Shown: positions 18,482 to 63,022, counted from the stretch's first letter. The stretch is DNA of 64,000 bases from Actinomycetes bacterium (GCA_029263055.1 JAJCYG010000058.1:3587-67586); one strand, 5' to 3'. The notes: generated from the letters alone by a model not told the origin. Translations and numbers: made by a program.

Positions 18482-18533
18482 CTGTACACCCTCCAAAGTC
18501 TCTCGGATTTCTCAAGTTGCACCTGCTCTGATG

Positions 18534-33127: not shown

Positions 33128-36100
33128 CTAAGCTGCTACCCCAAAGTTTTGTTCAGATTGTTGTTCTTGCTGCGCACCTTCTAACATTTCTTCCAACTCA
33201 GAAGGAGCTTGTTCAGGAACCAAGTGTCGAAGCACTTCTTCAATCACCATTTGGTTCATCAACTGATCACCAAAATCACTGTTTGAATATTGCGTCACTT
33301 CAAAAACCATCCAAGCACTTTCTCTAAGAGCTGTTAAGGTTCTTGTTGTTCCTGCATAGATGTTTTCTGTATCTTCTAACTGAGCACTTAAACGATCTGC
33401 ATCATTTTCTGAGCCCACAATAATCGCAACCAATAAGTTTGGCACATCAGCCAATTGATTTTGAATTTGTTCAATCTGCGAAGATTCAAGACCTTCAAGA
33501 TTTAACACCAATAAAGCCTTAGAATTTTTCATTGTCTCTTTAACTAATTCTAATTCTCTATCCAAACGTTGTTCTGTCTTTGCTTTTTCTTCTAAGAAAG
33601 AGCGGACTAAAGCATGCTCACGCTCATCAAGCGACAGCTCCGCTGAAAGAGTCTTAGAATAAGTTTGGTACATTTCATAAAAGCGTTCAAGCTCAGACTG
33701 AGACAAGGTGGTTAAGGTTAATTCGGTATACTCCCCACCCATCAACTTATTAAGGTGACTCAACTTCCATATAAAATTTTTCACTTCAGCTTCTGCAGGC
33801 ATTCTTTCATACGCTGGAGTGAGCTGTTGAACTAAGCGAGGATTTTTTCCCTCTTTTTGAGAACCGACTAAAACACCCTGCAACATTTTCTTAAGTGCTG
33901 CCTTTGGATCGCCTGATTCATAAGCCAACATCGCTTTTAAGTCTAGACCTAAACCTGACTTCATACTGCGTTGGCCTGATTTTTCCGCTTTTTCAGTTTC
34001 TGATTTTTTAATTATTGCTTGCGCACGTTTTAATTGTTTTTGAAGCTCATCATTTTTCTTTTGGTGCAGCTCTTTACTAAATGTGTTGAGCAAAAACTTA
34101 ATGGTTGATACGACTGCTCGAGCCGCATTTACTTGAGCTTCTCCAGTGGTCTTATCCATAGCCTGTAACTGTCTCACTCGTTTGACAGAAGCTAAGGCAA
34201 AAATTTCAATTCGCATGTCTGGATTTTCTTGGACCAATGTTTTCAAACCTTCTGAGCTTTCACTGTTCATGGCTTCGCCAAACTGATTTTGGAAAATTCT
34301 TGCTGCTTCTTTAGAATCTGTTGCCACTTTTGAAAAACCATCTTTCAAAGCAGTCCGCTCTTGACCCCGTTTGTTGGGCTGAGGTTTTGCTGCTGGTTTA
34401 GTTGTTGGAGGTTCAACTCGATCCACCTTTGCAGGAACATCTTTTTTCGGTTTACCCACTGGTTTAGTTGTTGGTTTTGTGCCTGGTTTTGGATCTGCTG
34501 CAGATTTTTTCTCAGCCTGAGCTGGTTTACCTGCCCCTTTATTTCCTGAAGGCGGATCTGCTTGCTTATCTAAAGCAGCTAATTCAGCTTCAACTTGAGC
34601 AGGTGTCAACACAATGGTCACCCGACGCAAGTCAGAAAGATTATCCACAACCACATCTCTTGAATGAGTCGATGAGACAATCAAAACAATTCGATTTCTT
34701 CCACTTCTATTAACGGTATCAGCTAATGCACGAAAGCGTGGAACCAAACGCTCGATTTTTGCCATTAAACCAGCAGCTTGTAAACGTTGAAGCTCTGCCT
34801 CAGGCACATTCGTACGAAGCTCAATTCCACGTGGCGCTGTGGCTGAACCTGCACCCCGTTGATGTTGGTAACGTTCATTAAAGGCTTCAACAGAATTAAC
34901 TGATTGAACAGCTGGTAATGCAGCCACTTGTTCTTGAACCCAACCATCTGTCACATCAATATAAGTACGAACTATATCTGCGACCGCACGCACATTTGGA
35001 GTCACTGTCGCGTCCCCTTTGATCACACGAACAATAACCACACTATTTGGATGCAGTGAATTTTGAGCAGCCAATTCTCGTAAACGAGGAACCAAACGCT
35101 GAAGGCCATCGACAAAATTATTTGGTCCAACCATTTGATGGGCCACAGCCACATCTCGATCAACCCGTAAGTTAATGCCCCGTTCTCCAACAACTTGTCT
35201 TGAAGCATCTCGTTGATGACGGTTACGCTGATTAAAGGCTGCGATCGTATCTCGACCGAGTTGAATTCGGCTTAATGACATCAAATGATCCACAGGTAAA
35301 ACCATTTCAATACGGCCACTTGGAGCCACACGAAACTCAACAGGATCATCTGCATTGCCTGGGACAATGCGAATTTGGATTGGATTATTTTCATCGATTT
35401 GTTGTAATCGGAACCACTCTCTTGTTTCTTCTAATAGCCGTTCTTTTGTGATTTCTATTTGATTGACAACACCTGAATCACTTGAAATGTCATATTGATC
35501 CACCACATCTGGCTCAACTAAAAGAGTAAAATTAGGATCTATTTGATTAAACAGTTGAACAGCCATTAAATCACTCACTAGGCTTTGAGCATCTTCGACA
35601 AAACGGGTCACGCTTTGTTGAAAAGCAAGGTGAGTCACTTGAGCCATTAATATTTCACGGCCATTTTGTTCTAAACGTGGCAGCAACTGCTCTTCTCCTC
35701 GAGGAACCACTAAGCCTGTTACATTGCGAGCCTCGAAATCTTCGATCAATCGAATCAAGCCAGCTAAAACAGAGTGCTCTCTTTTTTGATCGAGCGAATC
35801 TAATTCAATCAACCGCTCAACTAGTTCAGAGTCATCTAAATGAAGCGTTCCTGTAAGCTCTCCAGGATAACGGCTTGAAATTTCTTGAGCCACTTCTAAT
35901 AAAATAGTGTGGTTCATAAATTCTCTTAAAGAAAGTTTTGGATATCCCACCACAAAACTTGCTTCTTGAAAAAGGCGCATGGCTTCAGCAAACTGTTGGT
36001 CAAAAGTAGCAGCTGGATTCGCTGTTGACCATTCTCGGTAAAGAGGCGCAATCATGCTTTCCAAGCTAGGTGAAGCTTGGCCATCAACCCGTTCTGTTTT

Positions 36101-39100
36101 CAATTCTTGCAACTGAGGCACCAAGCCCATTCGCAATATTTCAGTATAGCGAGTGGCAAACTGTTGTGCGGCTTCCGGAGTGGTACCACGGCCGTGCAAA
36201 CGACGTGCAGAATCAAGCTGCGTGGTTCCAATCAAATCATTGAGTAAAACCACTTTTGGAAAAGCAGTTGGATGGGTTCTCATTAATTGAGCCATCTGAC
36301 TTGCATCTGTTAAGACAATCAAGTGTGCGTTTTCAATTGAGGCACTGGAAACAGCAATACCTGCTGGATTTTGCGCTGCCACACCAAGTCGGCCCATCAA
36401 AGCCGTTTCATCTGCACTATGACTTAAGCTACGACCCGTAAGTGTTATTCCATTTACAGTCACCCAATCATTCAAATGACTGCGCGTTAATTCCTGTTCT
36501 AATAACCCTTCAGTAAGCGTTCCTGTAATCGACTTGTCGCCGTAAACAACGACAACATTGACCCCGTTTTGGATATCTGTTGGAACCAAACTCCATAATT
36601 TTTGAAGAGGTAAAGCACGCAAATGTTCTTGAGTGAGATCAAGTTGTAATCGAATTAAAGCATCTTCTGCTTCAACCATATTTTGCATTACATGAGGAGC
36701 TAATGTTTCATTGCTTTGACGATAACGGCTATAAGCATCGACTAATTCAGCCAACGAGGTATTGCTTGTGGTAAAACCAAGTCGTTGTAATAAGTTGCGC
36801 AAAGTAGTCAAACTACCCAAACGACGTTGGCGATAAGACTCCATGTCACGCACCAATCTCAAGTTTAGAGTAAGTGGATCGCGTGTGGTGACACCTGCAC
36901 TCAAAAAGACTTTAACTCGGTTTAAGGCATGTTCCACATCACGGTTTTGACTGCTTGGATTTTGTCTGACAGCCTCAATATAAGCTGTGGTGGCACGAAT
37001 CAAAGCCTCATCTAAAGGATAGTCTACCGGCGTGGCATCTGCAGCCAAATTCCCATTAGCAATTAAAGCTGTTCTTAAATGTTGAAAGCGTGTTTGCATT
37101 AAACCGGTTCTTAAAATACGCAACACATTGGCTGAACGAGCCATTCTATTGGCTTCTGAATCAACGTTAGCCAAGACAGCCCATCTTGCCAAGCTTAACC
37201 CTTGGATCTGAACACCATTTAAACGAGTTTGCAAAGAACTCAATGCTGGCTCAAGCTCTGCGCGAATAGCTGCATCAATATTTGCAGGTAAATTCACTTC
37301 CACACCTGTTACTGCGTGAGTCACAGGATCAACAGTCAAACGAAGACTCAACTGAATTTGGACTAAGCCATCAGAAAGAGACATCCAATTAGGGATGTTT
37401 CCTGTTTGATCACGCAAGTCACGCGCATATTGAAAAATATTTTCTTGAAATTGTGAGCTTGCAAATTGATCGATACTTGGTGCTTTAGTTAGATTCAGCA
37501 CTAATTCAACCTGAGTTACCTCACCTGCAGTATTAGCAGTCATTGGTTTCAATTCTAATTGAGTGTTGGCTGTACTAAAAGAAGTGTTGGCAAAAACATG
37601 GTTCACATTTTCTCGAACCACTTGAGTCACCTCTGCACGACCCCGGTTTGTTTGAACCGAAGGCAATGGAGCGGTTGCTGAAGTAGCAAGGTTAACTCCA
37701 TTTAAAAATAAAGAAGCTAATGCCGAAGAACCAATGTGCAAACGACGCGCGCTACGGTGTGTTAATGGGTCTTCAGCCAACACTTCAGGAATCCCTTGTC
37801 CACCCAAAGAAGCTTGTCGTGAAGCAGCGGTTAAAAACTCTTGAGCTTCTGCTGCTTTTTCAGGAGTCAACAATTGATAAGCACGTAAGAAAAAGTAATA
37901 ATTCAAAGTGTCTTGAGTTGAAACCACACGCGTTCCATACCCAGCCACATTCCAATGAATCAACCCAGCTTCATCAAGCCTTTCTAAATAAGCTGTTTTA
38001 TCCCCTTGAACATCAGCCAACAATCGGGTCACCACTTCTCGGTCACCTGCATAAGAACCAAGGCTACGTAAGCGCCCTTCTTCTAAAGACAACCCTTCAA
38101 AACGAGCATCATATTGAGAAACCAAACGACGTGTTTCAATAATACGACGCGCTTGTTGCACCATTCGAGTTAAATCAGCTTCTGTTAAACTAGATCCCCA
38201 AGCCGCGTTCACTTGTCTTAATCCAAGCGTACGAATCAACATAAAGGTATGGGTAATGGTTTCAATAGAAGCAGTGCTTTTGATTTGAAAATTATTTTCA
38301 AAAACAGCATTCTTTAAATTAACTAAGGCAATATTTGAAGCAGGTAATGCTTGAGCTCCCACAGTTCCTGGAGCCCCTCTAAACCAAGTCATCATTTCAA
38401 CCAATTTAGTCCGCACAGCAGGATTGGTTGAAACCGCTTCAGTCACCATGAGTCGTTCTAAAGAAGCCATAAAATCAGTCATTGGCAATCTTTGAATACG
38501 AGGCTGTCCTAACAATTGATGTGCAGATCTTAATGCTTGAATACGAGCCGCCTCTGAAGCAGCGTCTACAGTCGCTCCAGAAGTGACTTGGCTCAATTGA
38601 TGCGTTAAATAATAAATATAAGGAAGGGAACGTGTATCTCCTATTTGGCTCACCATAAAGACAAGAGCTTCCAATAACTCACTGTTTGATTTTACACTTT
38701 GAACATATTGGCCATTCAAACGAATCGCATCTGTACTTTGCAAATCATACACAGAGTTAAAGAGATTAAACTCACCTGTCTCTTTGACATCCATTAAAAA
38801 GCGATAGGCTAAAAAGTTTGAATAAGAACGAGCATGTTCAAATTGACCTTCACGCACTTTCCACTGAATCATTTGAGCCACATCAGATAAGTAAACATAT
38901 GGATCACCCTCAAAAGAACGTGGCAAGGCAATTTGTTGTCCATTAAATTCCCGACGAATATAAGGGTCATTTAAAACAACATAGTTTAAAGGAACATGTT
39001 TATTGTTTAAAAAACGATCATAATCAGCTTCAACAACTGGACGATTCGGTTGATCCAACCGTTCATTAACCTGATTCATTTTTCCTAATAAGTTTCGATA

Positions 39101-42100
39101 ATTTCGAATAGCTCGATAAGCAGGATTTCCTGGCAATGTTTCTTTGCCTCCTTGTGTGGAACCTGTTAAAGCAAAGAAGAAAGCCTCTTCATGGCCATAA
39201 GAAAGTGTTTCTGTGATCTTTAAACGATCAATATAAGATTGCCATTGCGCCCGTGCTTGAAGATTAGCCCCTTCTGAATCTAGATGGAGCATGTAACGAC
39301 GGCCCATGTCTCGCTCAATAATAAGACTGTTTCGAACCCCTTCAGCTCGCTCAACAAAACCCCATAATTGCAAGCCTGCGTGATCGCGTAAGCCTTGCAT
39401 GATCTGCGCAAAGTTCTCAACCACACCGAGTCTTTCAACACGTTGTTCCATCTCTTGAATCAATGTATTTAAAAATGGAGTCTTACGCATTTTTTCAGCT
39501 AAGATCGCAAAACGGGCTTCAAATTCTCCAATTAAGGTTGCGGCGCGGCTTTCATATTGTTGTTGCTGACGACGGACAGCAGGATCATTTGCATCCAACT
39601 CACCTCGACGTAATTGCTCACGAAATTCATCAAATTGTACCTGAGTAATGGTCCAGTCACGAAAGACACGCATGATTCCATGCTCCCCTTGCATTAATGC
39701 AAGTGCTTCGGTAGCTTGTTTACGCGCCACACCATCTAAAGAAGTGTCATTTTGTTTTTCACGCAATAATTCTTGTAAAATCCACAGGATAGAAGTTTGG
39801 CTATCTGCTTGAGGCACCAGACCTTGAACAAATCCTGGCATTAAGTTTCTAAAAGCACTTGATGGATTTAAAACCAAGGCGGTTTTTTGTTCTTCAATGG
39901 CAGCAATACGAGTGTCATAACTCAGATACTTTGTATAAACTTGTCTTAGAACTTGCATGGCTTGAAAAGATTGCACAGGGATGAAACCATTTCCACCTAA
40001 TGCATCGACAATCGTTGCTTGACGCAAACGAGTCAATAATTGATAACGGTTACGTCTTTCTTCATCGCCCACATAACCCCCATTACGATCTCCCTCAGCA
40101 ATAAAATCACGGTTCTGAGTAAAGATTTGCTGTAAATCTTGTCTAAAGAAGACTAAGGCTTGACCAATCAATCGTTGAGCCCCAACAGGATGTTGTTGCA
40201 ACCTAGTTCGAGCAGCTGCATCAGCTGGAAAAATCAAGCGTAATGCTTGATCATAAATCCGTGCGTGACGTGCCATTGGAATTGCATTTACAAAGCGAGC
40301 CTTCTCTTGTGTTAAATCACGAATCTGCTGATCTAAAAACTCAAAAGTGACTAATATGTCCGGGCGGTTAGGTTCTGCATTACGCTGAGTACGAAAACGC
40401 TGTGATAAAATTAAAGCCCGGTCGCGAGCCACGTTCATATAAAAAGGTGCCAAGACTTGTTCAAAAAAGTAATCGTCATGGATCGATTGGATTTCTGCTT
40501 GGGCTTGAGTGCCACTGTGGGTCCGAGCCAAAATCTCGGTCACATCAATTCCAGCTCCAGAGCTTGGGTTCTTCACATCCTCGTGTGTCACTAAACTAAT
40601 AATTTCAGCCCCTTTAGCATTTAAAGTCGCGCGAATCGATTGAATTTCTCGGGATGTGGCTAAGGCTTGAGCCATACTACGGTGAAGCTTCATTGCGTCT
40701 GTGTATGAAAGAACCCGACTTTGAGCTCGGCGCGAAATATTAAACTGTAAGTTCACATAGTATTGAACCAAAAGCTCTTTGTAAGTCGCAACAGATGCTG
40801 TGTATTCTCGAAGGCGTTCGCGCGCCTGATTCAGTAATTCAATTTGTCTGGAACGAGTCGCTAAAGAAGTAGGATCTTGCTCCGCGTTCAAGCGTGCAAT
40901 TTCAGTTGTGATCACCGTATTTAAACTTGCCATGATCTGTTCTTGTGGAAACGATAATGTGGCTGCAAATGCCGAGACATCTTCAACTCCATTAGCTCGG
41001 AAAAAAGCTTGAGCTTCACGTTGGAATTGATTTGGATCCACACCTGAAGTTCTAAAAAGTTGTTGTTCTAATTCAGACAAACGAAGCAAAGAACGATTAA
41101 ACATTTCATTTGAAGTGACTTGAGCATCTGGCGAAGCATTGTTTAATCGGTTTGATGCAGCCGCCACTTCACGACGAGCTAAATCAACTGAAGAAGCCAA
41201 TGAGTTGGGTTCGACTGAAGAAAAATCTCCTTCTAAAGCCCGTTCTAATTGAAGATCAACTAGCTGACGTTGCAAATCACCACGGATAGCCGTCAAACCA
41301 CGATACGTTGTGGCTCCGTCTTGAAATCCTTGGTTTAAATCTTGTTGAAATTGTTGCACTAAAGGCCAAGTGTGATCATTATCGATTAATCGATTAAAAA
41401 GCTCAGCATATTGGCGTTGTAATGCAGCCATTTGAGCATTGATATCACTTTGAGACAAGGTGTTTGCCACTTCACGTGAAGAACGGTTTTGAGTTTGATA
41501 AGCAAGTTGATATTTTAAACGAAGAATGGTTTGTCGTTGTTGATAAAAAGCAGCCAAATCATCACTTAGTTCAACCACTCTTGGTCGAGTCAAAGGAGCC
41601 AGAAAGCCACGTGTTAAACCATTCAAAGATTGAGACAAGCGTTGTAACGAAAGATCAAAAAGAGTCGCTTCTTCTTTAGGTTGATCAAGACGCAAGAGCT
41701 GACTTTGCCCTTGTTGCGCTTGAATTCGAGCAATATTACGTTGAATGCGTGTTATTTCATTTCGTTGGCGCGTAATATAGGCCCCTTCTTCAGAAGGATT
41801 GTCTTCATTGGCTTCAATCACAGCAGCCATTTCATCATGTGTGGCTAAATGGATAAAAGAACCCATGGCTCGATGCATTATTGCTTGAATACGCTCCATT
41901 CGCTGAACGGTTCTAAAATAGTGAACCACTCGGTCTTCATTCATACGACGGATTAAGTCAGTATAAGTTGATTGTTGTGCTAAACGCGTTGCGTTTTCCT
42001 GACTCAAATCAAAGAGGTTGGTTAAAAAAGCACGACGACCCCCAACAGTATTCATATTCATTGGCGATGTTTTGGCATAACGCTCGTAACGCAAAATAAA

Positions 42101-45100
42101 AGCACGTGCATTTTCAGTTGTGAAGCCATATGTGTTTATTAATTCATTCCAAATAGGGCTTTGGGTCAACTCTGTAGGCGCTTGTTGAAACTGATTACGG
42201 ACCGCTGCAGCTTGATGGTAGGCATCAATAAACCGAACCAATCGTGTTAAAGCTGTACGAGGCGCATTTCCTTTTCCTCCACGTGTGCCATATGTAGAAT
42301 CAGCTAATAAAGATTCCACTAAACTTTTATCAGAAAGAATCGAAATAAAACGATCACGTAGTGCATCTGTCCAGATCAAATCCATTTGAGTAAATCGAGG
42401 ACGAAAACTATTCCATTGTTGCACACGAAATCGACCTTGAACCACTTGGTCAGCTTGTTCAATTTCAGGTGTGGAGCCTGGCAACAGAGAATCTTCATTT
42501 AATGTACGCAAGCTTCGAACATTTCTCATTTCGCCAGCCACCGCAAGAGCACGTTGAGATTCAGAAGGGTTGTCATCAGAATGTCTGTCAATAAATTGAT
42601 AAAAACGATTGTACAATGCTGCGGCTTCAGTATTAATCACTCCTTGGATTCGCTCTCTTAGTTCTTCATCTGCATCAGACTCATTTTCCGGTGCTTCTGT
42701 TGCGGCTAAACGAGCTTCATCTAAACGTAAAGCACGGTTGTAGTCTCTAAACTCTCTATCTAATGTTCTATTATTGTTAAAAGAGGTTCTTCGAGCACGT
42801 AACAATGTTTCAAACTCGGTTATTTTTTCATTCACCAATTCTTGTAAAATATTTGCCTGCAAAGGATCGCGTTGACGTAAAGCATCAATGGCAGGTTGAA
42901 CAGATGTGCGCAATCGTCTGGACCAACCTTCGCCTGTTCGAGGATGTCTAAATAAATTATTGAATGCAGTATCTGTAATTTCAAAAGAACCACTTCTACT
43001 TCCGGTTAAACGATAAAGTTCTTCTTGACTCCTTGTGTCTTGAGCATCATAAAGAGCCACTAATTCGTGAGCCATGTTATGAGAGCGAGTGTTGATGCTG
43101 CTCATAATCCCATCATGCCAATCTTCAACAGCAGGAGTTGTTGCCACTAAAGCAACGCGACGGGCTAATTTGTTCCAATGAAGCTGACGATGCAGCGCTA
43201 TCGGACGACGCATTAAGATTCTCATTTCTCCTTCTATGTGGCCCATGGTGCGACGTAAATCGCGAATCGTTAGGTTGAATTGATTACGAATTTCAACCGA
43301 TGGACGCGCTGTAAAATAAGCCATCAACTGTTGAGCAGAAGCGATGTTAGCTTCATACCCTTCAATTTCACGACGGCCTAACTCAATTTGATAAGTGGCT
43401 GTTTGGGTTCCTGAAATATCAAAGTAACCTGAACGCATTCCAAGCTCAAATAAAGAACTTCCCATTGGAGAGGCTTGCAACCGCTCACTCAAACTTTCTG
43501 AACCCGGTTCAGCGCTTCTTCTTGAACTGCGCTGTAAAAAATCAGCAATATTCACACCATAGTTTTCCAACACACCGGCTGCAACTGTAAAGCGCATAAA
43601 CGCATTAATTTGAGCACGACGAGCATTGGCTAACGCTTGAACAGCCCGTTGACGATCTTGAAGTGAGCCAATCCCATTTCGGTGTTCAGCATTTAAAGCG
43701 TTAAGCAATGCTTGGTTGGTTGTGATTAAGTTTTTGTTTGCATGAAATTCCATATTCGCACGAACTAAATCACGAAAGACTTGTTGTAAGTGAGCGCGAA
43801 TATCGTTCATGGATGTTCCAATTCGCGTCGCCTCTTGAGCTAAATAAGTTCGCTCAATCGCATCATCAATTTCAGAAATAAAGAGGTAGTCAAGCCCAAT
43901 TTCTAAGAACGCTTGTAATGTAGGATTACCATCAGAATTAGAAAAGTTAAAATTGTTCACACCCGCACCGCCACCTAAGCGCATGTTGCGTAAAAAGATA
44001 TATTCAAACGTATTATTACCCCATGGCTGAAGATTCAAACGCTCTATTTCTTGACGTGCGGCATCTGTGGTTGGGTCTTGCCCCGTTAAAACAAACTGCA
44101 TCACTTCAGAATGAGTTCCCAATGTGGTTAAAAGGTCACTGGTACGCAACAAATTGGCTTCGGCTTCATTTAAAGCCTCTATATCTAAATTAGATGAGCT
44201 CAACAAAGCTTGAAACTCAGTGGGTAACACGCGACGACCATTGTAACGATGTAATCCCAAACGCTCGATGCCTGTCACAGTTAAAGTGTCTTGACTATTA
44301 AGACCCACATTTAATTTTAAAAGATTGAGTCCATCTTGATTGCGTTGACGCAACTGATTAAGTTGTTGTTCTTTAATACTAAAGATATTAAGACTTTCTT
44401 GAACTTCTGCATTCTCTTGCACAAAATTGTTTAAATTTTCAAGCAATGTTTGCGCTGCTACTCGACGAGCAGGTTCAGCAAACTCACCAAATCCACCTAA
44501 ATTAACCATTGAAGTAATATGAGCAGGATTGGTTGTGTTTAAAAACCTGTGAATTTGGAGACTACTTAACTTTGTTAAAGCTAAAGTCAAGTAAGGAGCC
44601 GGAGTTTGAGGCCCATTAAATGCAGTGGCAATCATATCCATAATACGACGTTTTTCATCGCGATTAAACTCTGGAGCAGCTTGCCCATGTACAAATTGAT
44701 TAACCTGATCAAGAATAGCTTGGTTGGTCGCATCTCCACCTGCAGAAAGACGACTAAAGTTACGCGCTGCAAGCATCAATTCTAATGTGCCATCATATTC
44801 AATCTCTAGAATATCTCTTAAAATGCTCAAGTCATCATCAGCTAAAATACGATTTCCTCGTCCTGCAAGACCAGCCCATGCAGAGACAATGCCTCGAGTG
44901 GAACCGACTCGAACAACCGTGTCAGTTAAAGAATTGTGATACCCTTTTAATGTTTCAGTTAAAACATAAAGTTGATCCCCACTCACTGCCACACCCATTA
45001 GATCTTGCATAATACGAAGCCGCTCTTGAGCTTCAGTGCGAGCCTTTAATTCTAACGCGCGAACATAATCCAAGTAAGCTTGCAACACAGTTGCGCGAAC

Positions 45101-48100
45101 CGAAGCAGAAGGATTAAGGTGAAAAAGAACACGCGCCATTCCTTCATGGGTAACAATGTTGCTGCCATTATTCGGACGATTTTCAAATTGACGACCCGTA
45201 TATTCTAATTGATATCCATCAAAACGAATTAAACGATTTAAAATACCAGCACTATCTAATGCTGTTTGCAAAGCAGTTTGCTTTTGTTGCAAATTACTTT
45301 GAGCTGATTGCATAATGCTCGAATGAGTCATGGCTGCTTCAAGATAAGTTTGATTTGACGAATAATTACGTACTTGAGCCGGTGTGGTTGAATGTGTTGC
45401 CGAAGTGACATTAGGCACCTCGTGATACAACGCTGTGATTTGAGCCAAGCCCAAATTCATTAAGGCTTCTCTGTCTGCGCTTACAGCTCTTAAATAACGA
45501 CGACGTGCGTCAAAAAACAAACGCTGGTTGGTCACACTTGTATCACCACGAACTCGAGTCCAAGCTTGTTCAGCTTGTAGTAATTCTTGACCCGTGGTTC
45601 GTTTACGCTCTGTAGCTCTTCGTAGTGCCGCAGCAGCTTCTGTACGACTACGAATAGCACGCGCGCTATCTTGACCCGGAGTCACACTTAAACGTGAACT
45701 TGAAGAATAAAAACGGTCTCTAGATCGACGGCGGCTTGATTCATCTCGGCTAAAAAGAGCAGCTAAATCAATTCCAGCAATAAGTTGATGCTCATCTCCA
45801 TTTCCATTAAAGGAGCGTGCGTAAGTGTATTCAGCAAAAAGAACACCATTGTTTAAAAAAGTCCCTGAAATAGAATTACGTTCTTCACGCAAACGACGTT
45901 CAGCCGCTATACGCGCTTCTTGAGCTCGACGCAACTCTGTTTGAGCACTTCTTCCAGCTCGAACCAAATCAGCAAACTGAGCCACCAATGTGTTCATGTT
46001 TGATTCATTAAGCGTCATATTAATATTTAATTGCAAAGCCCGAGGATTCATCCCAAGTTCAATCGCTAATTGGCGTGTGAGGCGTTCTAAAGTAAAAAGA
46101 GTTTCATTTCGGTTTTGAGTTGCAGCCAATAGGTCTGCTTGAATACGGGCTCTCATCCCTGGAAGGGACTGAAACTGATTTAACAGTTGAAGCAATTCAG
46201 TTGTTGCTTGAGTAGGATTGTCTTGATTCACACGAAATTGGCGATTTGTTCCACCAGTTGTTGGCACCACCAAGGCTTGGTTTAAAACAATAATGCGAAT
46301 CAAAGTCTCAATTCCACGCTTGCGAAGATTAAACTGAGCCACTGCTTTTTGAGCGGTATGCTCTCTGATTTCTGCAGTGTGAAGCGCTTGTTGCTCATCA
46401 ATTAAGGTGTTAATTCTCACTTCAGCACGAGCACCCACATACCACTGTCCATTGCTAAAACGACCTGGCACATTGTTAGAGTTGCCTGTAAAGTTTTGGT
46501 AACGCGCTCCAGCAAGACCTTGCAAACTAAAGCGATCAAAAACCCAAAGCCCCCCAGTTGTATCAAGCATGGTTTGGGCTAATTGTATTTCTGAGTCTCT
46601 AAATAAGATTTCAGGATGGTTTTGAATCATCCGGTTTGGTATATCTCGAAACACATCAGTTAAATTTTGAACCTGGCCATTCCATGTATCAGGAACTAAG
46701 TTTTGCCCTCTTTGAGCCCCTAATGTTTCTCGCATCCAACGTTGACGCACACTCGCAGAATCCATGGCATTAGCTTGCAATCTTAAAGCAGCCATTAACT
46801 CACGCAGGTTTTCTGTTGTTGGATGGTTTTGATAAGCACGGCGCAATGCAGGAATATCAACGGTTCGCATTCTACCTGCTGCATCACCTAAATGTTGCAA
46901 CAATGTGGCGAAACGTTGTTGGGTTTCAACTTGGGCACGATAAACTTGTTCGGTTCGCAATTTTTCATCATGTAAAATGCGAAGTTGTTCGCGCGAATTC
47001 AAGTCACTTAAGGCAACTTGACGGCGAATATTACGACCGGTTTGAGTGTCAAAAATAGTCCAAATCAAGCGGGCATCAGCAGTTAATGTGTTGGTTGAAT
47101 CAACAAAATCATGCGCATAAGAAAAATTAACCAACACGCGTGGAACCAATGACAATGCAGACCAATGCTCTCCCATTTCTGTATGAAAAATAGAAGTGGA
47201 AGCGGCTGAACGAAGTCCTGCTTGAATTTGTTCTCCGCGATTTTGAGCTCGAAGTAAGTCAAGGTTTTGTCCGCGGGAAGCAGTAAGAGTTTCGCGACTA
47301 ATACCGGCATGCTCCAACATTCTGGTTAACGCCCCATTTTGAAGTTGAGCCACAGTAGAACGGATTTGATCGATTTCAATTCCGAGATCATTAAATCTAA
47401 GAGATTGATTTGAAGGTATATTTAAAATACGCCGTAATGTTGCTTCTGCTTGAAACACTTCACTGCGAAAAACAATTAGATTTAATTCTTCTCGTGAAAT
47501 CTCTGTACGAACAAGTGCCACATCAGAAGCACTGGCTCGGCCTTCTCTATATTTAGTTTCTGTTTCACTCAACACCAAGCGAAGCCCTTCAATATGTGCT
47601 CGACCCAATTCTACCTTTTGACGAGAAAAAAGAACATCTGATGCCGCAATAAAACGTTCCATTAAAACTTGTTGAGCTGCTTGGTGAACAGCATGTTCTT
47701 GTTCTTGAACAGCACGGTTAACTTGAGAAGCTTCGATTAAATCTTGAACCGATAAACTTACCGAAGCACGTGCTCCAACCGTTAAATCTGTTTCGCGTGG
47801 GCTAGAGTCTGTTGCTGTCCCCTCTGTGGCAAAATCACTGGCACCTAAAACAGCAGCCACTCTTGGTGCAAATCGACGGTAACGACTTGTTCGTTGCAAA
47901 CGTGCCCGTTCCAAACCTGCTTGAGCTGCCACAACACGACTATCTTGCATCACCCCTGTAGCTAAATTATCTGTTGTCACTAAAAAGGATGTTCCTGAAA
48001 CAGCGGGCACCACACCCCCACTTGTTCGGCCTGAACCAGGAAGCGGAACCACACGTCGTGTGGAATGCGAATCCAATCCAGCTAACACAGCATCAATGGT

Positions 48101-51100
48101 GCCAATGCGGTCACGCAATCCAATCTCACGCACATCACGAAAATAAGAGGTTTGAGAAGCCGCTCGAACATTAAGAATGTCTGAAATCGCAACAGGCAAA
48201 CGGCGTAACAAACGATTGACTAAATAATCTTGAAAGTTAAAACTTGCTGCTCGAGTATCTCTCTCTGTTCGAATCCACTCAGCTAAAGTTGATTGGTCGA
48301 GACCAGCTAATGTTTGTAAATCTGTTCTAATCGTTTCTCCTAAAGTATTTAACGTGGTCTCTTTTTGCCTGTGAAGAGTACGGAGGTTTGCCAAACGACT
48401 TAATCCATCAGCCCGGCGTTCTGTTAAAGTAAAACGAATCAATTCAGAAACATAACGCTCTCGAGCCAAGTCAGCTTCTCCAACAACCTGTTCGTAACGT
48501 TCTAATTGCACTAACAAACGATCAACCACTACTCGGATCGGCGCGCCTGAAGCATGGCGGTGAGACAGGCGCTGCAAATATTCTCTTAAGCGACTTAATT
48601 GACGAAACCATGTTTGATCTGCTTGAATCGCCCGTTGGGTCAAACGATGGACTAATTGACGTTGTTGCAAACGGCGACCCTGTAACATACTGATTTCTTC
48701 ATCATACTTATCACCTGCGCTCAAACGTAATCGAGCTAAAATTTGTGGCTGAGTAGCACGCACTTTTTCTTGCGCACGGGCCACACCCTCTTCAGCCAAA
48801 CGAAGTTCATCAAGTTCATCTAACGTTGCTCGTAAATAAGCTAAATAGTTTTGCGCTCTGGCTAAACGAGTTGATCCTTGTACAAAAGCAGGGATCACAA
48901 GTTCTGATAAAGGAATCCGTAAAATGTCTTCTGAACCTCCGCTTGACAAATCTGCAATCAATTGTGCGATCCCTCGAATGCGAATTTCAATATCATCCTC
49001 TTCACGCTGGCGAATAATACGAGCAAACCCTGAAACGCCATCATAGCCATGAATGTTTCCTAAACGAACTGAAAGACGCAATTGAACTTGAGTCCTCTCA
49101 TTAAGAGCAGCTGGTAATTCACTTCGAATTTGTGTAGATAGAGCTTGATATCCTTGTCGAGCCAACACTCCCTCAGCCAACACTTCATCAAGCATGCGTT
49201 GATTTAAAACAGATTCTTGTAAAAAGTTAGCAGGAAGCTTAATGGTTTGCCCTTCACCATTTACAACCCCAGTATCTTTAAGCTGCTGCAAAAGTGCTAA
49301 AGCTCGTGTACGAGAAAGTACAGGGCGACGGCTAATTTCAGAAACCAAATCAGCATTACTTACTTCACCTCGAATGTTTAAAACAGCAAGCACTCGATTA
49401 ACAGTGGCTTGATCACGGTTAAGGTATTGAATTTCATTTCTAAAGAGTCGATACACTTGGCTACGAATACCAGCAAATTCTACTGCGCGGTGATTGCCAA
49501 ATTCTCGGCGTAGCACTTGTTCAAAAAGAGACCAATCAATTCGGTCTTGGCTCAAATCAGAGATAACTTCAGCGCGACGATTGGTTTGAAATTGAGCACG
49601 TGGTGCTTGACGATTTGGTGCATAAATTAAAGAGTGAGCATAAGACAAATCAAGATCATGAGTCATTTCAGTATAATAACGGGCCGTGTAATCTGTTGAA
49701 AGAGTGCCTGCTTGAAGTTGACGAATAAAAGGAAGTCCTTGAACTAAATGACGTTTAACCTCAGCCCATGAAAGGGAGGATCCAGCTTCGAGGCGTTCCA
49801 CAACCGCTTTTAAATTGTCTAAAGAGGCGGTTCCATTTCCTGTCCATATTGTTCTCCCAAGAGGATTGTTGCGAGCTGATTGAATCGCTGTGAGCAAACG
49901 CTCTTTATTGGCATCGGCATCAACTTGGCTTCCTGAAACAGAGGTATACTGAGTTAAGATTTGCGTGTAAAGATCTTCTGCTTCCATTATCTGTTCAATC
50001 CAAATTGGATTGTATGAGAATGAATAAGCTAAACCAGAGACATCTCCCAAACCAGCAAGAAGCTCGCTTGCGTTATACTGACGCGCCCGTTCACTTGCTG
50101 CGTTCATACGAATATGAAGCAAGTTATAGTGCTGAGCTAATTCACGAATTTGAAGTTCATTTGAATCTTTGACTTGAGTCAAGTGGGCTAACCAACGTTG
50201 TGCTTCTGTTAGTAAACGTTGCTCACGTCTTAATGCTGTATCAGCACGGGCAATTTCTCGATCAACTTGTTGAGTAAAGAGATCAGCATCATCAGAAGCA
50301 AGGCGTTCAATTTGGGCTAATTGCAAACCTCCTTGAATGGCACCAATCACAGGTTTATCTTGCACGCCCTGAGAGACTAATTCTCCTTGACTAGCCAAAT
50401 ATGATTCGAGTTGAACCCAACTGCCACGATTTTGAACAGCTAAATCTCTTAATCGATTAACCAAACGAGTAACCGCCTCTAAAGAAGGATCATTTAAACT
50501 TAACCCTTGATTGCGAAGTTGTGTTTCAAACAAACCAATCACATTGCTCACTTCATCGTAATCAACTTTTAACTGACCAATTTGTTGAATAAAGGCTTGA
50601 AAAGAACGGGCATTAAATGAGGTGCTGCTATTCACATTTGTGGCCAGTTGCTCATAAGCCAGAATCGCTTGAATCTCTTTTTGACGGAGCTGATTTAAAT
50701 GATTGATCAAACGAGTCACATCCACATTACGTGTACTAGCAAACTGCATGGCTGTTAAGGCCTCAACTTTGCTTAGTTGCAAAGTACGTCTTCGAGCTTC
50801 AATAATGCTCGTACGCCCTTGTCGGTCTTGCACCATTAAACCTGCTTCATGAATAGCTTGATTCAAACGGGCTGTAGACCCTCTCAATCCAATCAAGCGA
50901 ATACTGGTTTGTTGTAAATCATTAAGAGACTGATTGGCAAGTTGAAGTTCTAATTGGCGTAGATCAGCATCTTCATCTGATTTTCGAATCGGGTTCACAC
51001 GGTTCAGCTGAGCCACTAAAGCACGCAAGCGTTGTGGCAACCAACTAGGTCCTTGATTGCTTAAAAGACCTGACCAAAATAAGGATGATGACAAAAATAA

Positions 51101-54100
51101 AAATGCCGAAAACACCAATCGACGTAGCCAAGGCTGAATATGTTTTTCTTCAAAACGCTTGAATCGTTCTCCTGCTGTTCTAAAAGCAGGGGTTTTAACC
51201 GATGAATCAAAAAAGAAAATGCTGATTCCCAAAAGAACCGCTCCTGCACCTAAAGCAATCAAGCCTGGCAAACCAATTTGCGGAATAAAAGGCCCTACCG
51301 CTCCAATCAAAAGTAAAAGGACAGGAACCACAGGGTTTAAAAAGACCCTTTTAACCGCGTTATATATCAAGAGCTTGAAACTTCCCACCATTGAAGAGGT
51401 CTTTGCCACAATTTCACGGGAGAAAATAATCGGCGAAACAATCATCCCTAAACCAATAAAAAGGTTCATTCCCAAAACAGCCCATAACACTAAATTGTTC
51501 ATTGGAATGGTTCCAATCAAAACCCCATAGCCAATCGAACCAATCAGCCCTAATCCCATAAGCTGTGTGTAAATAATGCTTTTGGAGTAGATTGAAACAA
51601 GAATCTCTCTAAAGGTTTTACTCTCAACATTGACATTTGCTTTCACTCCAGTATGACTAGCTCGCTTAACCGAACCAAACATTTGTCCTGTAGCCCCAAA
51701 CATTTGCGAAGGCATTTGAGCTGTGTAATACCAAGTTAAAAAGAGATAGGCCAAAGGCATTAAAATAGGTGCGAGCAAAATAACGCCTAAAATAACCACA
51801 TAACGAAGCTGCTTATGAGCCAAATATTTTTTCAAAAATTTAGCCGGCGCATATTCGCCACGCTTGTCATCTGGACTGATTCTAAAAAAAGATGTCATGC
51901 GACTCACTTTTTCATTAGCAAATGATTCTAAGTTAATTGCATTTGGCGCTAATGAAGCAATGATTCCAAACGGAAGCAACATAAGCGGCATGGCTGTGTA
52001 AACATTAGAAATACCTAAATTCCAAATCCAAATATTGGCAAATGTTAAAATCATTAAAGGAAGCAAAATCACAAAACCAAATAAATTTGAGGCAAATTGA
52101 ACTTTAGCTGTCCAAGGAACCCGTGGGTTTTTAAAGAAAGAAAGCATGTCTTCAGTAAAAAGACCGCGTGCTTTAGACGCCCCAACTAAAACTCGGTGAA
52201 ATGTTCTTATACCAGGCCATGTTTTAACAGCATTTTTAACTTTTTGCGGGATCACCCCACCTAATGAAAAATAAACAATGCCACCGATCACAAAAGTAAA
52301 ACCAAAGAAAAGAGCAAGCTCTACAGGAAAAGCCCCTAACCCGGCTAAAAAACCATTCCAAAAAGGTTCAAATAAAGTGACACCGGCAATTTTAGGACTC
52401 CAACCTGTTGCGGCAATTGTAATAGCAGTGAGAGGCAACAAGTAGCGAACTTTAAAAACACCCAGCAAACGAGATGGATTTTTCAAGGTTTCAATGGTTT
52501 GAGAAAAACCAACATAAAAAATAATGTAAATAGGAACAGCAACCACTAAGGCCAACAAGAGTAACTGCACAACTTCCAAACCAAAGACTGAAGTCAAAGC
52601 AGGGTTGCTAATAATCTCCCATGAAGGGAGCCAATCTAAAGCATTGGTGATCACAGCACCCATATTTGTCAGGACTTGTTCCATTCCTGGAAAGGGACCA
52701 AATAAATCCACTACCACTGAACGAAACCCAGAGATCACATTTTCTGAGATCAACGAAGAATAATTATTAGAAACAAGAATTAAAGCTGCAGAAGCTGTTA
52801 AAAAGAATCCATTCCAAAAACGTCCACCCCATGTTTTAAACCCTTGATAAGAACTTGCTCGCACAGCTTCTAAGGCTTCAATCAAAACCTGCCAGCGGAC
52901 AACCTTTGCCCCAGCACTCACTAAGTTTGTAAATGTTCCTTGAGTTCCAACAGCTGCTTTAAGTACTTTTTTCGAAGGATCAATCTTATCTTCTAATGTA
53001 TAACTATTAAAGAGAGCGGCAATCACAACTAATGGAACAGCCGATCCCAGAGCAACAGCTGGTCCCACAGCACCTAAGTATTGAGCCACCAGTAGAGACA
53101 CAATGCCTGCTTTAGCCAAACTCGCAAAAAAGTTTCCTTCAGCCACTTCACGTGTTGAGTAATAACGAATCCATTCCCCAACAAAAGGAAGCTTAGATAA
53201 AACTTCGCTTACTTCACCACGCAACATCACAAAACGAACTGTTTTTAAACCCGCATAAACAACCAGAGCAAACTTAACTAATCCGTAAAGAGTCGGACCT
53301 AATAACTCGCGGACCAGACCAACAAACTCAAGATTAAAAAGAGCTTGGCCTAAGGATAAGGCAACTTGGTGCAGACCTAAGTTATAAAACAGCAATCCAA
53401 AACCAACAGCAATCCCAGTCAACAGCACAGAAGCAACAACCATTTGAAAAGCTTTCCACTTGCTTCCAGTATGACGTTTTTCCCAAATTTGTTTGGCTGT
53501 TTGCCACAACAGATTCATCACTAAAAGAGAGCCGACAAAAAGAAGCAAACCAAAAGGGCTGATTCCAAATTGTTGAAAATAGATTGAGATGGTACTGATT
53601 CCATAAGAAAGATCAGGAAAAGGAAAAGGCAATCCAAAGACAGTCCAGCCACGAATACCTGCTTGCATTAATAAAAAAGCAACCGTTCCAAAGACAGGCC
53701 ACGAATAAAGACGAGGCGCATTTTTAAATACTTCTGTTACTGTGTTTCCTAAAAGCTCCCAAGCCCCTTTAGCAAACTTCCATGTTCGAACAGAAGAGGT
53801 CACGTTAAAGTCAGGCACCACTCCTTCACTTGTTCCTTCATAACCAGTGGTGACAGTAATTGAATCAAACTTATGCCCGGTTACAGGATTAATCAACTCA
53901 GTTGACATCATTTGTTGCTGAGCATCTTCAGCAATAAAGGTACGACCTGAACGAGAATGCATCACATTGGTTAATGGACGCACTCCAAAACCTTGAGACC
54001 AAATTTTTTCTGAACCTGGAGAACCAATTCTCTTCTTCACATTACGGCGGTAATCCTTACCCCGTATGTGTGGATCAAAAGCTAAAGAAGCACGCAATGA

Positions 54101-57100
54101 AACACGGCTCACTAACTGGTTATGCCCATAAGCAAACGTCATGTCATTGGTTGGAACAATCTCTTTAGAAAAGATGCCGACTAAAGGCCCCACATTTCGA
54201 GTAACCATGTTCTCATCGCTGTTATTTGCTTCAGTGGTACTTTGAACAATGGCTAAGTTTGGATTTTCAAACATAAACTTAGCCATTTCCCAGGTCCCTT
54301 GTGTAGCAGCCCATGAAGATTTGTCATCAAACTGAAGGATTTTATTTAAACCCATATAATGCTCAGCAGGTTCGCCATTGACTTTGTTTGAAATCAAATC
54401 ACCCCAGCCCAACTCTTCATGCATAGTGTCATGAACTTGATCCCCTAAAAATCCGCGAATCCCTTGAGCATATAAAACTTCTCTAAAACGAGCGGTTACT
54501 TCTGACTCGGTTGGAGCACGGCGGAGAAAACTTGCATCGGTCCACACGTCATAATAAAGCTCCCATTCACGCACAGAAACGTTACTAGGAAACTGAGCTT
54601 TAAGAGGATCTGATTCAGCTAAATGTTGAGTTATAATCCGAATCAATTCTTTATGACGCGGACTTAAAGGAATCACAGAAAGATTTCCATCTGCTTGAGC
54701 CACTTCATTAACACGTTTGTTCAAGACATCTTCTTGATAGCGCAACACTGAAGCCATCTTTATTTCATTTAAGGATTGTTTATACTCTAAAACCAATTCA
54801 AGAATCTCTATTCCATCAGTCAGCTCTTCTTCACCAAGGAGTTGCACCTCAACTTCCCAGTCAGGATTAACAGATGGATCTGAGTCAATACCATTACTCT
54901 CTGCCACTAAAAGATTAAGCGCAAATTTTCTTGCCTCTTCCTTTTCATTCTCTGTTAGCTTATTTTCTATTTCAAAAATCTTTTCAACAGTGCTATAAGA
55001 AATAGAAAGGGCGCTCGCGATCGTTTTCATTATTTCTTCAGATCGAGTTAATGCCCGACCTTCTTCATCACGAATTTCTTCAGCAAACTCTTTTAAATTG
55101 TTTTCAACTCTATCAGTCATTTGAACAGATAAACCTAAGACCTCAGCTGCTGACATAAACGCCCATTTTTGTAGAGCTTGGCTACGTCCTAAAGCAAGGT
55201 CAATCAGGTCGTCTGCTTTTGCTTTAATCGCTTTAGAAAGATTTTCAACCTGCTCTTCCCAAACAGGGTGATCTGGAGCAAGAGGATCTATTGGCACCAA
55301 AGAACCAACAAAAGGAACAGAAGGAACACCACGGATCTCTGCTAATAAAGTCTCATTATCAGCATCATTACTAATCCCATTGATCTCTGCTAACAAATAA
55401 AACAATGCTTTTTTACGTGCTTTTTTATTTTCATTAGCACTAGAAGAGTCTTCACTTTGAACGATTAATCTAGCGGTTCTATAACTAACAGAAAGAGAGG
55501 TTGCAACAGTTTGAATAACCTTCTCTTCTTTTGTTAAACTTCGAGCATGGTGATGTTGAACCACTTTTTCTTGTAAAGCCAAGTCTTCTTCAATTTTTTG
55601 GCTCGCTTCAACAGACGTATTTAAAATTTCAGCCATGAAACGATGGCCTGCTTTTTGCTCCATCCAAGCAAAGACTATAGGGTGTATTTGGTTTTGATCT
55701 AAAAGCTCTTTCTTTACTTCACGGTAGGCATCGGTATAAGAGAGCCCCCCGTTTTTAGGGTCTATCTTCTTTAATATTTTTGTTTGGATTGTCCACACAG
55801 GTTCTGTTTTTAAGATCATCCACGCTTTATGACGATTTAAAACAGGGGCAAACGTATCGCCGAGCCTTTTAGAAAGCTTAACAACTTCTTCAAGCGCAAA
55901 ATCAATTTGAAATGGGACTGATTGGTTACTCGCTTTAGGAAACAAACCATGACGGCGATAAACCTTACCTTTATCTAAAACTTCACCATGCTTAGGACGA
56001 GACGTGTATTGAATTTTTTGTGTTTCATAAAAAGCAGTTCGCACATAAAGTTGTTGTAGATTTTCAAAATTCTCTTCAGTCACGCCTAATCGATACAGCG
56101 CTTCTCCAAAAAAATTATCATTAGTATTATCTTCATTATCCTTAGACATAAACTGAGTCACCCATTTGAATGAATTAAGAACAAGGGCGCTGTCAGCCAT
56201 CTCTAAGTTCATCCTACTAAGCTCACTCACCGCATCCGCATCAGCAACAGGCTCTAAATTTGATTCAATTTTGTTTCGATACGCTTTTACCAAAATAAGG
56301 TCCAGAACTTTATCTGTTAAGTCTCCTGTCCCTCTAAGACGATCTGTTTGCACCACATGCAAACGCTTTAAGGCTTCATCCATCACTTCATGGCGTGTCC
56401 ATGCCTTATTATGGCTTTGGTCTGCTTTCCATTTTTTTTCAGCATCAGCCACATCAAAAACTTTATTCACTTCAATCACTTCTTTTAAACTACGCAGACG
56501 ATCGCGGTATGGATTAAGGTCATCTAGTAAACCTTCCACCATTTCTAAAGCAGCTTCATAAGCAGATTGAAAACTCATTTTTGGATCTTTATATCTTAAT
56601 TCTTGAATCACAAAAGTAATAACATCTTGATAATCTAAAAGATCTTCCATAGGGCGAGGATCTGATAAAGGATTCACAGCATTGTGTCTAAGCACATCTT
56701 CTCTTAGTTCATTAAAGTAAGCTCCTGTCTTTTCTGCTTTAGGCTTTACTTTATCAGCCAACAAATACAAGTAGTCATCAGCACGCGCGATATTCACTCG
56801 ATGATCTAAACCACGGGTTGCCAGTTGTTCTTTATAATACCCAGCAGAACGTTGGTGCATTCGCAATCCCTTAATAATAATATGAATATCTTCATTATGG
56901 ACTGGGGTGAAAAGAGTCATGCCTTCAACCGTGGCATTATCAACTTTATTTTCTTCAACGCGGGTCACTTTTTGATTACGGCGATCAGAAGAGGTTCCAC
57001 GTGTTCTAGGACGAAACGTCCAAACAGAATGAATCCCTTTAGCAATGGCAAAGAAAGCTCCTACCACAACAGCCTGAGTTAAAGCAGTAGGCTCGGCAGC

Positions 57101-62941: not shown

Positions 62942-62977
62942 TTTTTTATCAACCTTACCCCTTAATCGAATTTGAAC

Positions 62978-63022
62978 AAAAAAATAGCCAAGTTGCATGC
63001 TTGATTAAAACTGCAACTCGGC
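62978..63022 (-). terminator. Intrinsic terminator (riboswitch expression platform)
   Basis: Minus strand GCCGAGUUGCA-loop-UGCAACUUGGC-UAUUUUUUU, overlapping the aptamer 3' strand. Confidence 0.8.

Follow-up and report, generated by a model that had tools for sequence, protein, structure and literature searches.

TolC-type ducts of the bacterial outer membrane are textbook obligate homotrimers, and the question raised by the locus described here is whether such a duct could also be laid out along one chain, within a single very large protein. The locus lies in a 64,000-nucleotide stretch of DNA from an Actinomycetes bacterium (GCA_029263055.1 JAJCYG010000058.1:3587-67586), which was analyzed as a whole and is referred to as the window; its minus strand carries an open reading frame (ORF) of 9,956 codons. 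According to the original prediction, made from the DNA sequence, positions 43540-47960 encode tandem repeats resembling TolC and the outer membrane efflux protein family (OEP, Pfam PF02321), about 1,470 amino acids in all, which could form a single-chain channel joined by long helices to an inner-membrane glycosyltransferase. This interval was found to lie entirely within the 9,956-aa ORF, at approximately residues 5013-6486. OEP-like units at these coordinates were confirmed, and it is very probable that they number six and make up three TolC-like modules. The coordinates of all features are collected in Table 1, where residue r of the ORF has its first base at window position 62998-3(r-1).

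OEP-Like Units in the Giant Reading Frame

All nine peptides quoted in the original prediction were recovered in the minus-strand frame, at residues 5019, 5045, 5074, 5149, 5286, 5306, 5460, 5892 and 6438. The block to which they belong was delimited as residues 5009-6486 of the ORF (1,478 aa; window 43541-47974, minus strand) and was scanned unit by unit with the Pfam OEP model. Unit 1 was matched at residues 5017-5193 with an E-value of 2.7e-10 (40.8 bits, the curated cut-off being 22), and unit 6 at residues 6391-6466 with E-values of 2e-4 to 6e-4 (20.1-21.7 bits), slightly below the cut-off. The NCBIfam TolC model matched the first module, which consists of units 1 and 2, with an E-value of 9.6e-6. 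Standard family scans of this kind catch one or two of the six repeats, and such modules are therefore easily overlooked.

A repeat profile was also prepared, as a hidden Markov model (HMM) of 66 OEP repeats cut from 33 ordinary TolC homologues of the same phylum. With all HMMER filters off, every one of the six domains that it reported across the 9,956 residues fell within residues 5004-6479. For comparison by hhalign, the ORF was divided into 244 sliding windows of 200 aa and each was aligned to the OEP repeat profile. The best window clear of the module scored 16.1 (E about 0.05; background mean 12.6, standard deviation 2.2), and units 1, 2, 3, 5 and 6 exceeded every background window that did not overlap the module. 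The four top windows not wholly inside residues 4950-6550 overlap the borders of the module, and their alignments are with unit 1 or with unit 6. With the Pfam match of unit 1 and five units above the hhalign background, the predicted presence of several TolC/OEP-like units was upheld. When windows of module 1 were aligned to a profile of full-length, two-repeat TolC proteins, a probability of 96% and an E-value of 6e-9 were obtained over columns 46-342 of 446.

Neighbours of the module according to a protein language model (ESM) were of the same kind. For residues 5440-5890 they were TolC/OEP families in 30 of 30 cases (413-497 aa, scores 0.96-0.97), and for residues 5880-6490 they were TolC-like clusters (score 0.97); the look-alike families of modules 2 and 3 taken together were 332-502 aa long, again with scores of 0.96-0.97. 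When 2,023 ORFs of the same genome, nine of them TolC homologues, were searched by phmmer, the best TolC protein ranked 3, 4 and 1 for modules 1, 2 and 3, while for six control pieces of the giant protein it ranked 29, 65, 65, 98, 93 and 32. No repeats were returned at E<=10 by a BLAST comparison of residues 4950-6550 with themselves, the units being too diverged from each other, and comparison of the module with PDB sequences by phmmer yielded no relevant matches.

The sequence of window 42500-49000 was reproduced without indels in contigs from two public runs, both of one study and labelled as biofilm metagenome. The first of these runs, which is possibly the source of the assembly, showed zero differences. 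The second, a separate sample, covered 27 of 30 bins and showed a single A>G difference and zero indels. The local sequence is thus not an assembly accident. Among the public runs listed, no RNA data carrying the window sequence were found.

Layout of the Module

Units 1 and 2 pair as module 1, units 3 and 4 as module 2, and units 5 and 6 as module 3, so that three protomer equivalents (437, 445 and 596 aa) follow one another head to tail. Within each unit the apparent order is helix, candidate strand pair, helix, and in this order, as in the length of about 1,470 aa, the block agrees with what had been predicted. Sequence patterns of alternating hydrophobic residues mark 12 candidate amphipathic strands in six pairs, one pair per unit. 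The OEP similarity is real, and the count of six is the one that a 12-strand TolC-type barrel needs. Successive strand pairs start 241, 198, 234, 208 and 418 residues apart, the last spacing being long because of an insertion of about 230 aa in module 3. Some 15-30 residues separate the "LG" motif at the end of one module's helix from the N-terminal helix of the next, and the N-terminal helices of modules 2 and 3 start near residues 5446 and 5884.

Six-Unit Blocks in Other Giant Proteins

Weak OEP matches were sought in 19 genomes of the phylum that carry the N-terminal domain family of this ORF, and hits in giant frames were scanned by hhalign. Exactly six consecutive OEP units, with flanks at background, were found in giant ORFs of genomes G009 (9,425 aa; E 3e-9 to 0.007, with four units at E<1e-6), G005 (9,528 aa; E 1.5e-8 to 0.003) and G027 (9,031 aa; E 2.9e-8 to 0.016). 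The blocks of these three measure about 1,312, 1,286 and 1,500 aa, respectively. Together with the present ORF, six repeats were therefore counted in four of four well-resolved giant modules. OEP proteins of 802, 1,059 and 1,582 aa had two units each, and across 61 genomes of the phylum the frames that contain the 150 strongest OEP matches were 347-1,110 aa long. The best alignment between the present module and that of G009 runs in register from end to end (15-1491 versus 41-1329, E 0.005), and alignments shifted by whole modules scored lower. A search of 79 genomes with the G009 module at E<=1e-6 returned the query itself or ordinary TolC proteins only.

That the conserved count of six equals the number which one barrel needs is the main argument for one chain making one duct, an arrangement that these sequence comparisons modestly favour. 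Three chains might instead make three ducts, if each module were to trimerise with the same module of two other copies. Every characterised outer-membrane factor (OMF) is homo-oligomeric according to PMC8277102 and PMC4827864, and each module here is the full equivalent of a two-repeat protomer (437-600 aa), both of which would suit such trimers of giants. However, trimers of this sort give no reason for three modules per chain, yet six repeats recur in all four resolved giants; linkers of about 15-30 residues would force the three ducts to stand side by side; and the modules have diverged from one another past BLAST detection, as would be expected if neighbours were non-equivalent. We consider this arrangement unlikely.

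Multi-unit frames were also observed in other genomes. A frame of 16,618 aa in a genome with the record title Omnitrophota (L156, G081:C25:64000-80000) carries at least five OEP-like units, which are consecutive (E 5.6e-5 to 0.0017; about aa 1900-3290 of the fragment), and a module of several OEP units may perhaps extend beyond one phylum. Two strong OEP repeats were seen in a 3,200-aa frame (L058, G023:C98), and two in a contig-limited frame of 1,522 aa (G024:C335). These two frames may represent intermediate architectures, with a TolC protomer fused to other large domains.

Membrane Clusters and the Predicted Glycosyltransferase

Two clusters of hydrophobic helices were located by a Kyte-Doolittle scan (19 residues, threshold 1.6), and the soluble domain which they flank corresponds, as far as hydropathy peaks are concerned, to one feature of the layout of family 2 glycosyltransferases (GT2; Pfam PF13632, PF00535 and PF13641). 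The module follows both clusters and a linker of about 1,030 aa, and to this extent the predicted joining of the duct to a membrane part stands, although the signs that this part is a glycosyltransferase synthase are faint. No glycosyltransferase family was matched in the ORF, either by Pfam at E<=1 (eight pieces searched) or by NCBIfam. Residues 1950-4050 gave nothing relevant by phmmer against PDB sequences, residues 1960-3980 had no homologues among the shorter proteins of a collection of 5.8 billion, and residues 2900-4000 retrieved from 79 genomes only the query or ordinary TolC proteins.

The motifs of canonical GT2 domains are, in order, DxD, (T/A)ED and a QxxRW-type motif. Just ahead of the second helix cluster the ORF has the GT2-like motifs GHN, AED (residues 3023-3025) and K-F-x-x-G (about residues 3068-3076) followed by ELL. 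They are collinear with the GT2 domains of the G005 giant protein and of a neighbouring giant ORF in the window, each alignment being non-significant (BLASTP 42% over 26 aa, E 0.13, to G005; 29% over 42 aa, E 0.36, to the neighbour). With a GT2 profile, residues 2904-2976 ranked first of 195 windows of the ORF, at an E-value of only 0.03. At the equivalent place, between helix clusters, the G005 giant protein has a genuine GT2 (PF13632, E 4e-9, 37 bits versus a cut-off of 27), and the order of its parts is that of the present ORF: helix clusters with GT2, a linker of about 950 aa, six OEP units. The G009 protein has the same kinds of parts with the six-unit module ahead of the helix clusters. 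Fusion to an inner-membrane glycosyltransferase, as originally predicted, is thus well founded for the relative, while in this ORF it comes down to degenerate motifs and zero family matches.

A likeness of the F-T-P-x-x-N-E motif in the ORF to glycosyltransferase family 48 (GT48) was considered and found unsupported, the own-genome match to Pfam Glucan_synthase being in the neighbouring ORF only, and weak (E 0.27). An internal duplication of about 75 aa was seen at residues ~2485-2725 (window 54824-55546, minus strand), with copies that by eye start near residues 2494 and 2655.

Proposed Architecture and Cargo

Residues 5009-6486 are best read as three complete TolC-type protomer equivalents fused head to tail, for whose six units the likeliest fold would be one pseudo-trimeric barrel of 12 strands in the outer membrane, standing on a long tunnel of alpha-helices in the periplasm. 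In TolC the chain both starts and finishes in the periplasm. With its two ends there, the block could be inserted in any long periplasmic stretch of a chain, and this fits its differing positions in G009 on the one hand and in G005 and the present ORF on the other. The duct would fasten the giant protein in the outer membrane and place an exit over its own inner-membrane part. With a polytopic part and a linker of about 1,030 aa ahead of the module, the polypeptide would have an anchor in each membrane and an exit duct of its own. The favoured cargo would be a polysaccharide from a GT2-type synthase of the gene cluster, because OMFs are described as exporters of complex carbohydrates among other cargo (PMC4827864) and because a GT2 is linked to the module in G005. 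This synthase could be the degenerate GT2-like domain of the ORF; the giant protein whose gene lies three genes downstream has an intact GT2, and this is the more probable candidate.

The six repeats with their order and spacing, the recurrence of the six-unit block and the hydrophobic clusters are observed; closure of the barrel by a single chain, the topology, the outer-membrane location and the cargo are inferred. The full picture, an envelope-spanning arrangement with polysaccharide as cargo, is offered tentatively, as an even prospect at best. Its most compact version is more doubtful. In it one polypeptide would span the envelope as a machine for synthesis and export, in which a shaft of about 1,000 residues in the periplasm lies between a GT2-type synthase of the inner membrane and a single-chain TolC-type duct of 3 x 2 repeats, and the six-repeat module would be a conserved, movable block in the giant proteins of Auribacterota- and Omnitrophota-like bacteria.

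A serious alternative to polysaccharide is self-export of part of the giant chain, in which the duct, in the manner of an autotransporter, would mainly pass its own chain to the surface, for example the C-terminal region of 3,470 aa. In type I secretion, proteins travel through TolC ducts in the unfolded state (PMC8277102), and giant proteins of related phyla have been read as surface structures (10.1101/2023.11.21.568195 and PMC12057145); the C-terminal part of the present ORF is long, has no membrane helices and matches no family. In G009, however, the module precedes about 6,500 aa that include two membrane-helix clusters, so that an order of module and then passenger is not general. A chain joined to its duct on the periplasmic side would need hairpin threading to pass through it, and surface domains are not evident in the C-terminal part. 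For all its seriousness, self-export of this kind appears improbable.

The block might also serve as an envelope brace without transport, a degenerate relic of TolC which only pins the protein to the outer membrane and keeps the two membranes a set distance apart. As a brace would allow, units 2-5 have diverged strongly and are invisible to Pfam, the glycosyltransferase-like domain of the ORF looks degenerate as well, and paralogous giants keep the N-terminal domain but carry quite different bodies. Nevertheless, candidate amphipathic strand pairs and unit spacing are retained in all six units, and the six-unit layout persists without other detectable similarity between modules, which points to selection acting on the assembled structure. 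We accordingly give a brace in place of a duct little chance, and the two functions are not mutually exclusive.

Evidence Against a Single-Chain Duct

A number of observations weigh against the proposal of a six-unit, single-chain duct with its own synthase. In the family scans, Pfam OEP was silent for units 2-5 and NCBIfam TolC for modules 2 and 3. Unit 4 reached an hhalign E-value of 0.054, which equals the background maximum and does not exceed it, and unit 5 was marginal (E 0.017). The ESM recognition value of module 3 was 2148, below the guide value of 2300. Residues 5334-6533 had no matches among 1.84 billion protein representatives; among 5.8 billion proteins, the region 5000-6500 had no homologues of near length, and an alignment of the three modules had no matches among the longer proteins (2,602-5,000 aa). 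When the module was searched against 41 genomes (40 of them from relatives) at E<=1e-3, only the query itself and ordinary TolC proteins were retrieved. In the searched collections the module was thus without alignable relatives. Among the other giant proteins, the G018 ORF (11,357 aa) showed only three partial OEP units and those of G006 and G007 only weak OEP matches.

Single-sequence AlphaFold2 modelling of residues 5005-6204 gave a mean predicted local distance difference test score (pLDDT) of 36, a predicted template modelling score (pTM) of 0.25 and zero strands. Since even the Pfam-positive unit 1 was unfolded in this model, it is uninformative either way. The long helices of TolC have 67 residues, and the sole suggestive feature of the poor model is a 67-residue helix directly after strand pair 1; helices after strand pairs in it measure 67, 38-73, 41 and 83 residues, all at low confidence.

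On the inner-membrane side, the DxD motif in the ORF looks degenerate, and a PF13632 search of the same genome at E<=10 matched the neighbouring ORF and not the 9,956-aa ORF. The topology is that suggested by the hydropathy scan alone. If the duct is closed and has both ends in the periplasm, the role and place of the C-terminal 3,470 aa are unexplained.

The gaps in the family scans could also be explained if only units 1, 2 and 6 were OEP-like and the roughly 900 aa between them were an unrelated coiled coil, leaving one protomer with a huge insertion that still trimerises. In favour of this, Pfam sees units 1 and 6 only, and by hhalign unit 5 is marginal and unit 4 no better than background. 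Against this, unit 2 (E 3.6e-5) and unit 3 (E 9e-4) were both matched, residues 5440-5890 on their own had none but TolC families among their 30 ESM neighbours, candidate strand pairs are present in units 3-5, and the clearer relatives have six strong units (G009, four at E<1e-6). A single interrupted protomer is therefore very improbable. For unit 4 the repeat HMM gave domains at residues 5666-5711 (independent E-value 0.26) and 5801-5844 (0.4), and its assignment leans on the ESM neighbours, the strand pattern and the in-register alignment with the G009 module, which support it.

Locus and Neighbouring Genes

The source genome (2.95 Mb, 124 contigs, 96.8% complete) is the sole member of its own family within a phylum of 79 represented species. 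Its giant ORFs measure 19,496, 9,956, 7,493, 7,355, 6,028 and 3,916 aa, with more besides (contigs C42, C69, C54 and others), and its ORFs above 2,500 aa total about 87,000 codons. Within window 2-62998, four large genes of the minus strand follow head to tail with gaps of 81, 86 and 286 nt. They encode proteins of 9,956, 3,639 (N-terminal domain family), 1,085 (without family) and 7,355 aa and look like one operon of giant genes. The 7,355-aa neighbour has a GT2 between hydrophobic clusters (PF13632, E 9.9e-8, window 581-1177) and weak matches to Glycos_transf_2 (1.2e-3), the N-part of Glucan_synthase (0.0089) and CBM30 (1e-4).

Table 1. Features of the 9,956-aa ORF and of its giant neighbour, in window coordinates.
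Feature	Window position	Strand	Residues	Remarks
Giant ORF	33128..62998	minus		9,956 codons plus stop; holds all parts of the protein
N-terminal family domain	61124..62911	minus	30-625	signal- or anchor-like hydrophobic stretch just before
First hydrophobic-helix cluster	57185..58144	minus	1619-1938	about 8 peaks
Soluble domain between clusters	53564..57184	minus	1939-3145	about 1,200 aa; degenerate GT2-like motifs in last ~200 residues (53744-54343)
Second hydrophobic-helix cluster	51062..53563	minus	3146-3979	about 14 or more peaks
Linker	47975..51061	minus	3980-5008	about 1,030 aa; without family match; putatively periplasmic
OEP unit 1	47387..47974	minus	5009-5204	strand pair 5045-5084; hhalign E 2.8e-10 (5009-5195)
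OEP unit 2	46664..47353	minus	5216-5445	strand pair 5286-5317; hhalign E 3.6e-5 (5244-5380)
OEP unit 3	45959..46663	minus	5446-5680	strand pair 5484-5530; hhalign E 9e-4 (5434-5560)
OEP unit 4	45329..45958	minus	5681-5890	weakest unit; strand pair 5718-5749; hhalign E 0.054 (5802-5844)
OEP unit 5	44699..45328	minus	5891-6100	strand pair 5926-5962; hhalign E 0.017 (5966-6000)
Insertion within module 3	44009..44698	minus	6101-6330	about 230 aa; hhalign at background; predicted helical at low confidence (DSSP of poor model)
OEP unit 6	43541..44008	minus	6331-6486	strand pair 6344-6373; hhalign E 0.0034 (6398-6479)
C-terminal part	33131..43540	minus	6487-9956	3,470 aa; without family match; without membrane helices (hydropathy)
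Neighbouring giant ORF	2..18496	minus		three genes downstream; 7,355 aa in full contig; same N-terminal domain

The N-terminal domain has eight paralogues in its own genome (phmmer E 1e-21 to 1e-141) and matches in 19 other genomes of the phylum, with E-values down to 4e-76. The family thereby occurs in 20 of the 79 genomes of the phylum, mostly with at least 16 copies apiece and in frames of 441 to 24,620 aa. Further loci are in records titled Omnitrophota, Auribacterota, FCPU426, Firestonebacteria, Goldiibacteriota and Elusimicrobia/Endomicrobia. Many of the paralogous giant proteins have this domain in common and quite different bodies. An AlphaFold2 model from 41 sequences (pLDDT 83) has an alpha/beta core split by a helical bundle of about 300 aa, and by VIA-align it resembles ChaN (Z 8.7) and EreC, 2qgm and HopBA1 (Z 7.8). 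The modelled fold can be described as ChaN/erythromycin-esterase/Tiki-like, the helical bundle being an insert. A match to Pfam Cofac_haem_bdg (E 3.4e-5) was below the cut-off of that family, and Foldseek comparison of the model with the PDB gave nothing at E<=1e-3. Conservation in the family includes invariant H, Q and E, a near-invariant GGFH and a D-x-H motif; the D-x-H, E and GGFH suggest a metal-dependent hydrolase. At the other end of the ORF, residues 9691-9776 (window 33671-33928, minus strand) show similarity (E 1.5e-5) to residues 3391-3475 of a paralogue that is 3,610 aa long and encoded on a different contig, a sign that these giant proteins may share a second element near their C-termini.

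Significance and Comparison with Known Systems

If the proposed duct is correct, three segments that are not identical suffice to make a TolC-type barrel and tunnel, and the protein would offer an asymmetric scaffold for studies of gating and partner docking. It would also raise the question of how the beta-barrel assembly machinery (BAM) inserts a barrel whose strand pairs stand 200-400 residues apart in a chain of 10,000 residues. Some giant proteins would be anchored in both membranes with an exit duct of their own, in one case with a genuine GT2 synthase, and a first functional handle would be gained on an expanded family of giant proteins from uncultured phyla.

The closest relatives are the OMFs (TolC, OprM, CusC; PF02321; TCDB 1.B.17). 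As in these, the building unit here is the OEP repeat, which would run from a helix through a candidate amphipathic strand pair into a long descending helix and an ascending one; there are two repeats per protomer equivalent, and 12 strands are needed for a barrel. OMFs are described in PMC4827864 and PMC8277102 as oligomers whose chains measure 472 +/- 30 aa; of the 12 strands, each protomer contributes four, and it shows an internal duplication. In the present case, by contrast, three protomer equivalents are found in one chain, inside a 9,956-aa protein with inner-membrane helix clusters. With a tandem OEP pair and an OEP match above cut-off, yet no separate trimer-forming chain, the protein is unlike a plain OMF member. 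A natural single-chain OMF was found neither by a non-exhaustive word search of the open-access literature nor in the main texts of papers on giant genes.

Tripartite efflux pumps and type I secretion systems (AcrAB-TolC, HlyBD-TolC) cross the whole envelope, as is proposed here, by combining a TolC-type duct with a connector in the periplasm and a component in the inner membrane. Those assemblies, however, are non-covalent and made of three proteins, with an energised ATP-binding cassette (ABC), resistance-nodulation-division (RND) or major facilitator superfamily (MFS) transporter and a membrane-fusion adaptor, whereas the parts of the present protein are covalently joined. None of these transporter families and no adaptor family was seen in the ORF by Pfam and NCBIfam scans.

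Synthase-dependent systems for cellulose (BcsA/B/C), poly-N-acetylglucosamine (PNAG; PgaCD/PgaA) and alginate (Alg8/44/AlgK/AlgE) have a GT2 between helix clusters, a periplasmic scaffold and an outer-membrane exit. That exit is a single-chain porin of 16-18 strands with tetratricopeptide (TPR) repeats on a separate protein, and is not of the TolC type. The layout of a GT2 between clusters is clear in G005 and only hinted at in the present ORF, which differs from these exopolysaccharide systems in that its GT2 is undetected by any family model.

Giant proteins of Omnitrophota and allied phyla (West-Roberts et al. 2023, preprint, 10.1101/2023.11.21.568195) are comparable in size, at about 10,000 aa or above; they too have numerous transmembrane helices and highly diverged domains and come from uncultured bacteria. 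SecA-DEAD, peptidase, dockerin-type and carbohydrate-active domains are reported there, and the terms TolC, efflux and glycosyltransferase do not occur in the main text of that paper. The nearest printed idea is that of fused oligomer-forming barrels (Solan et al. 2021, PMC8346858), in which TolC is not mentioned. That work describes an oligomeric unit amplified into a single chain (OMPLA), the same evolutionary idea as is put forward here. In the fused barrels, however, one chain holds several separate barrels, while in the present protein three four-strand segments would combine into one.

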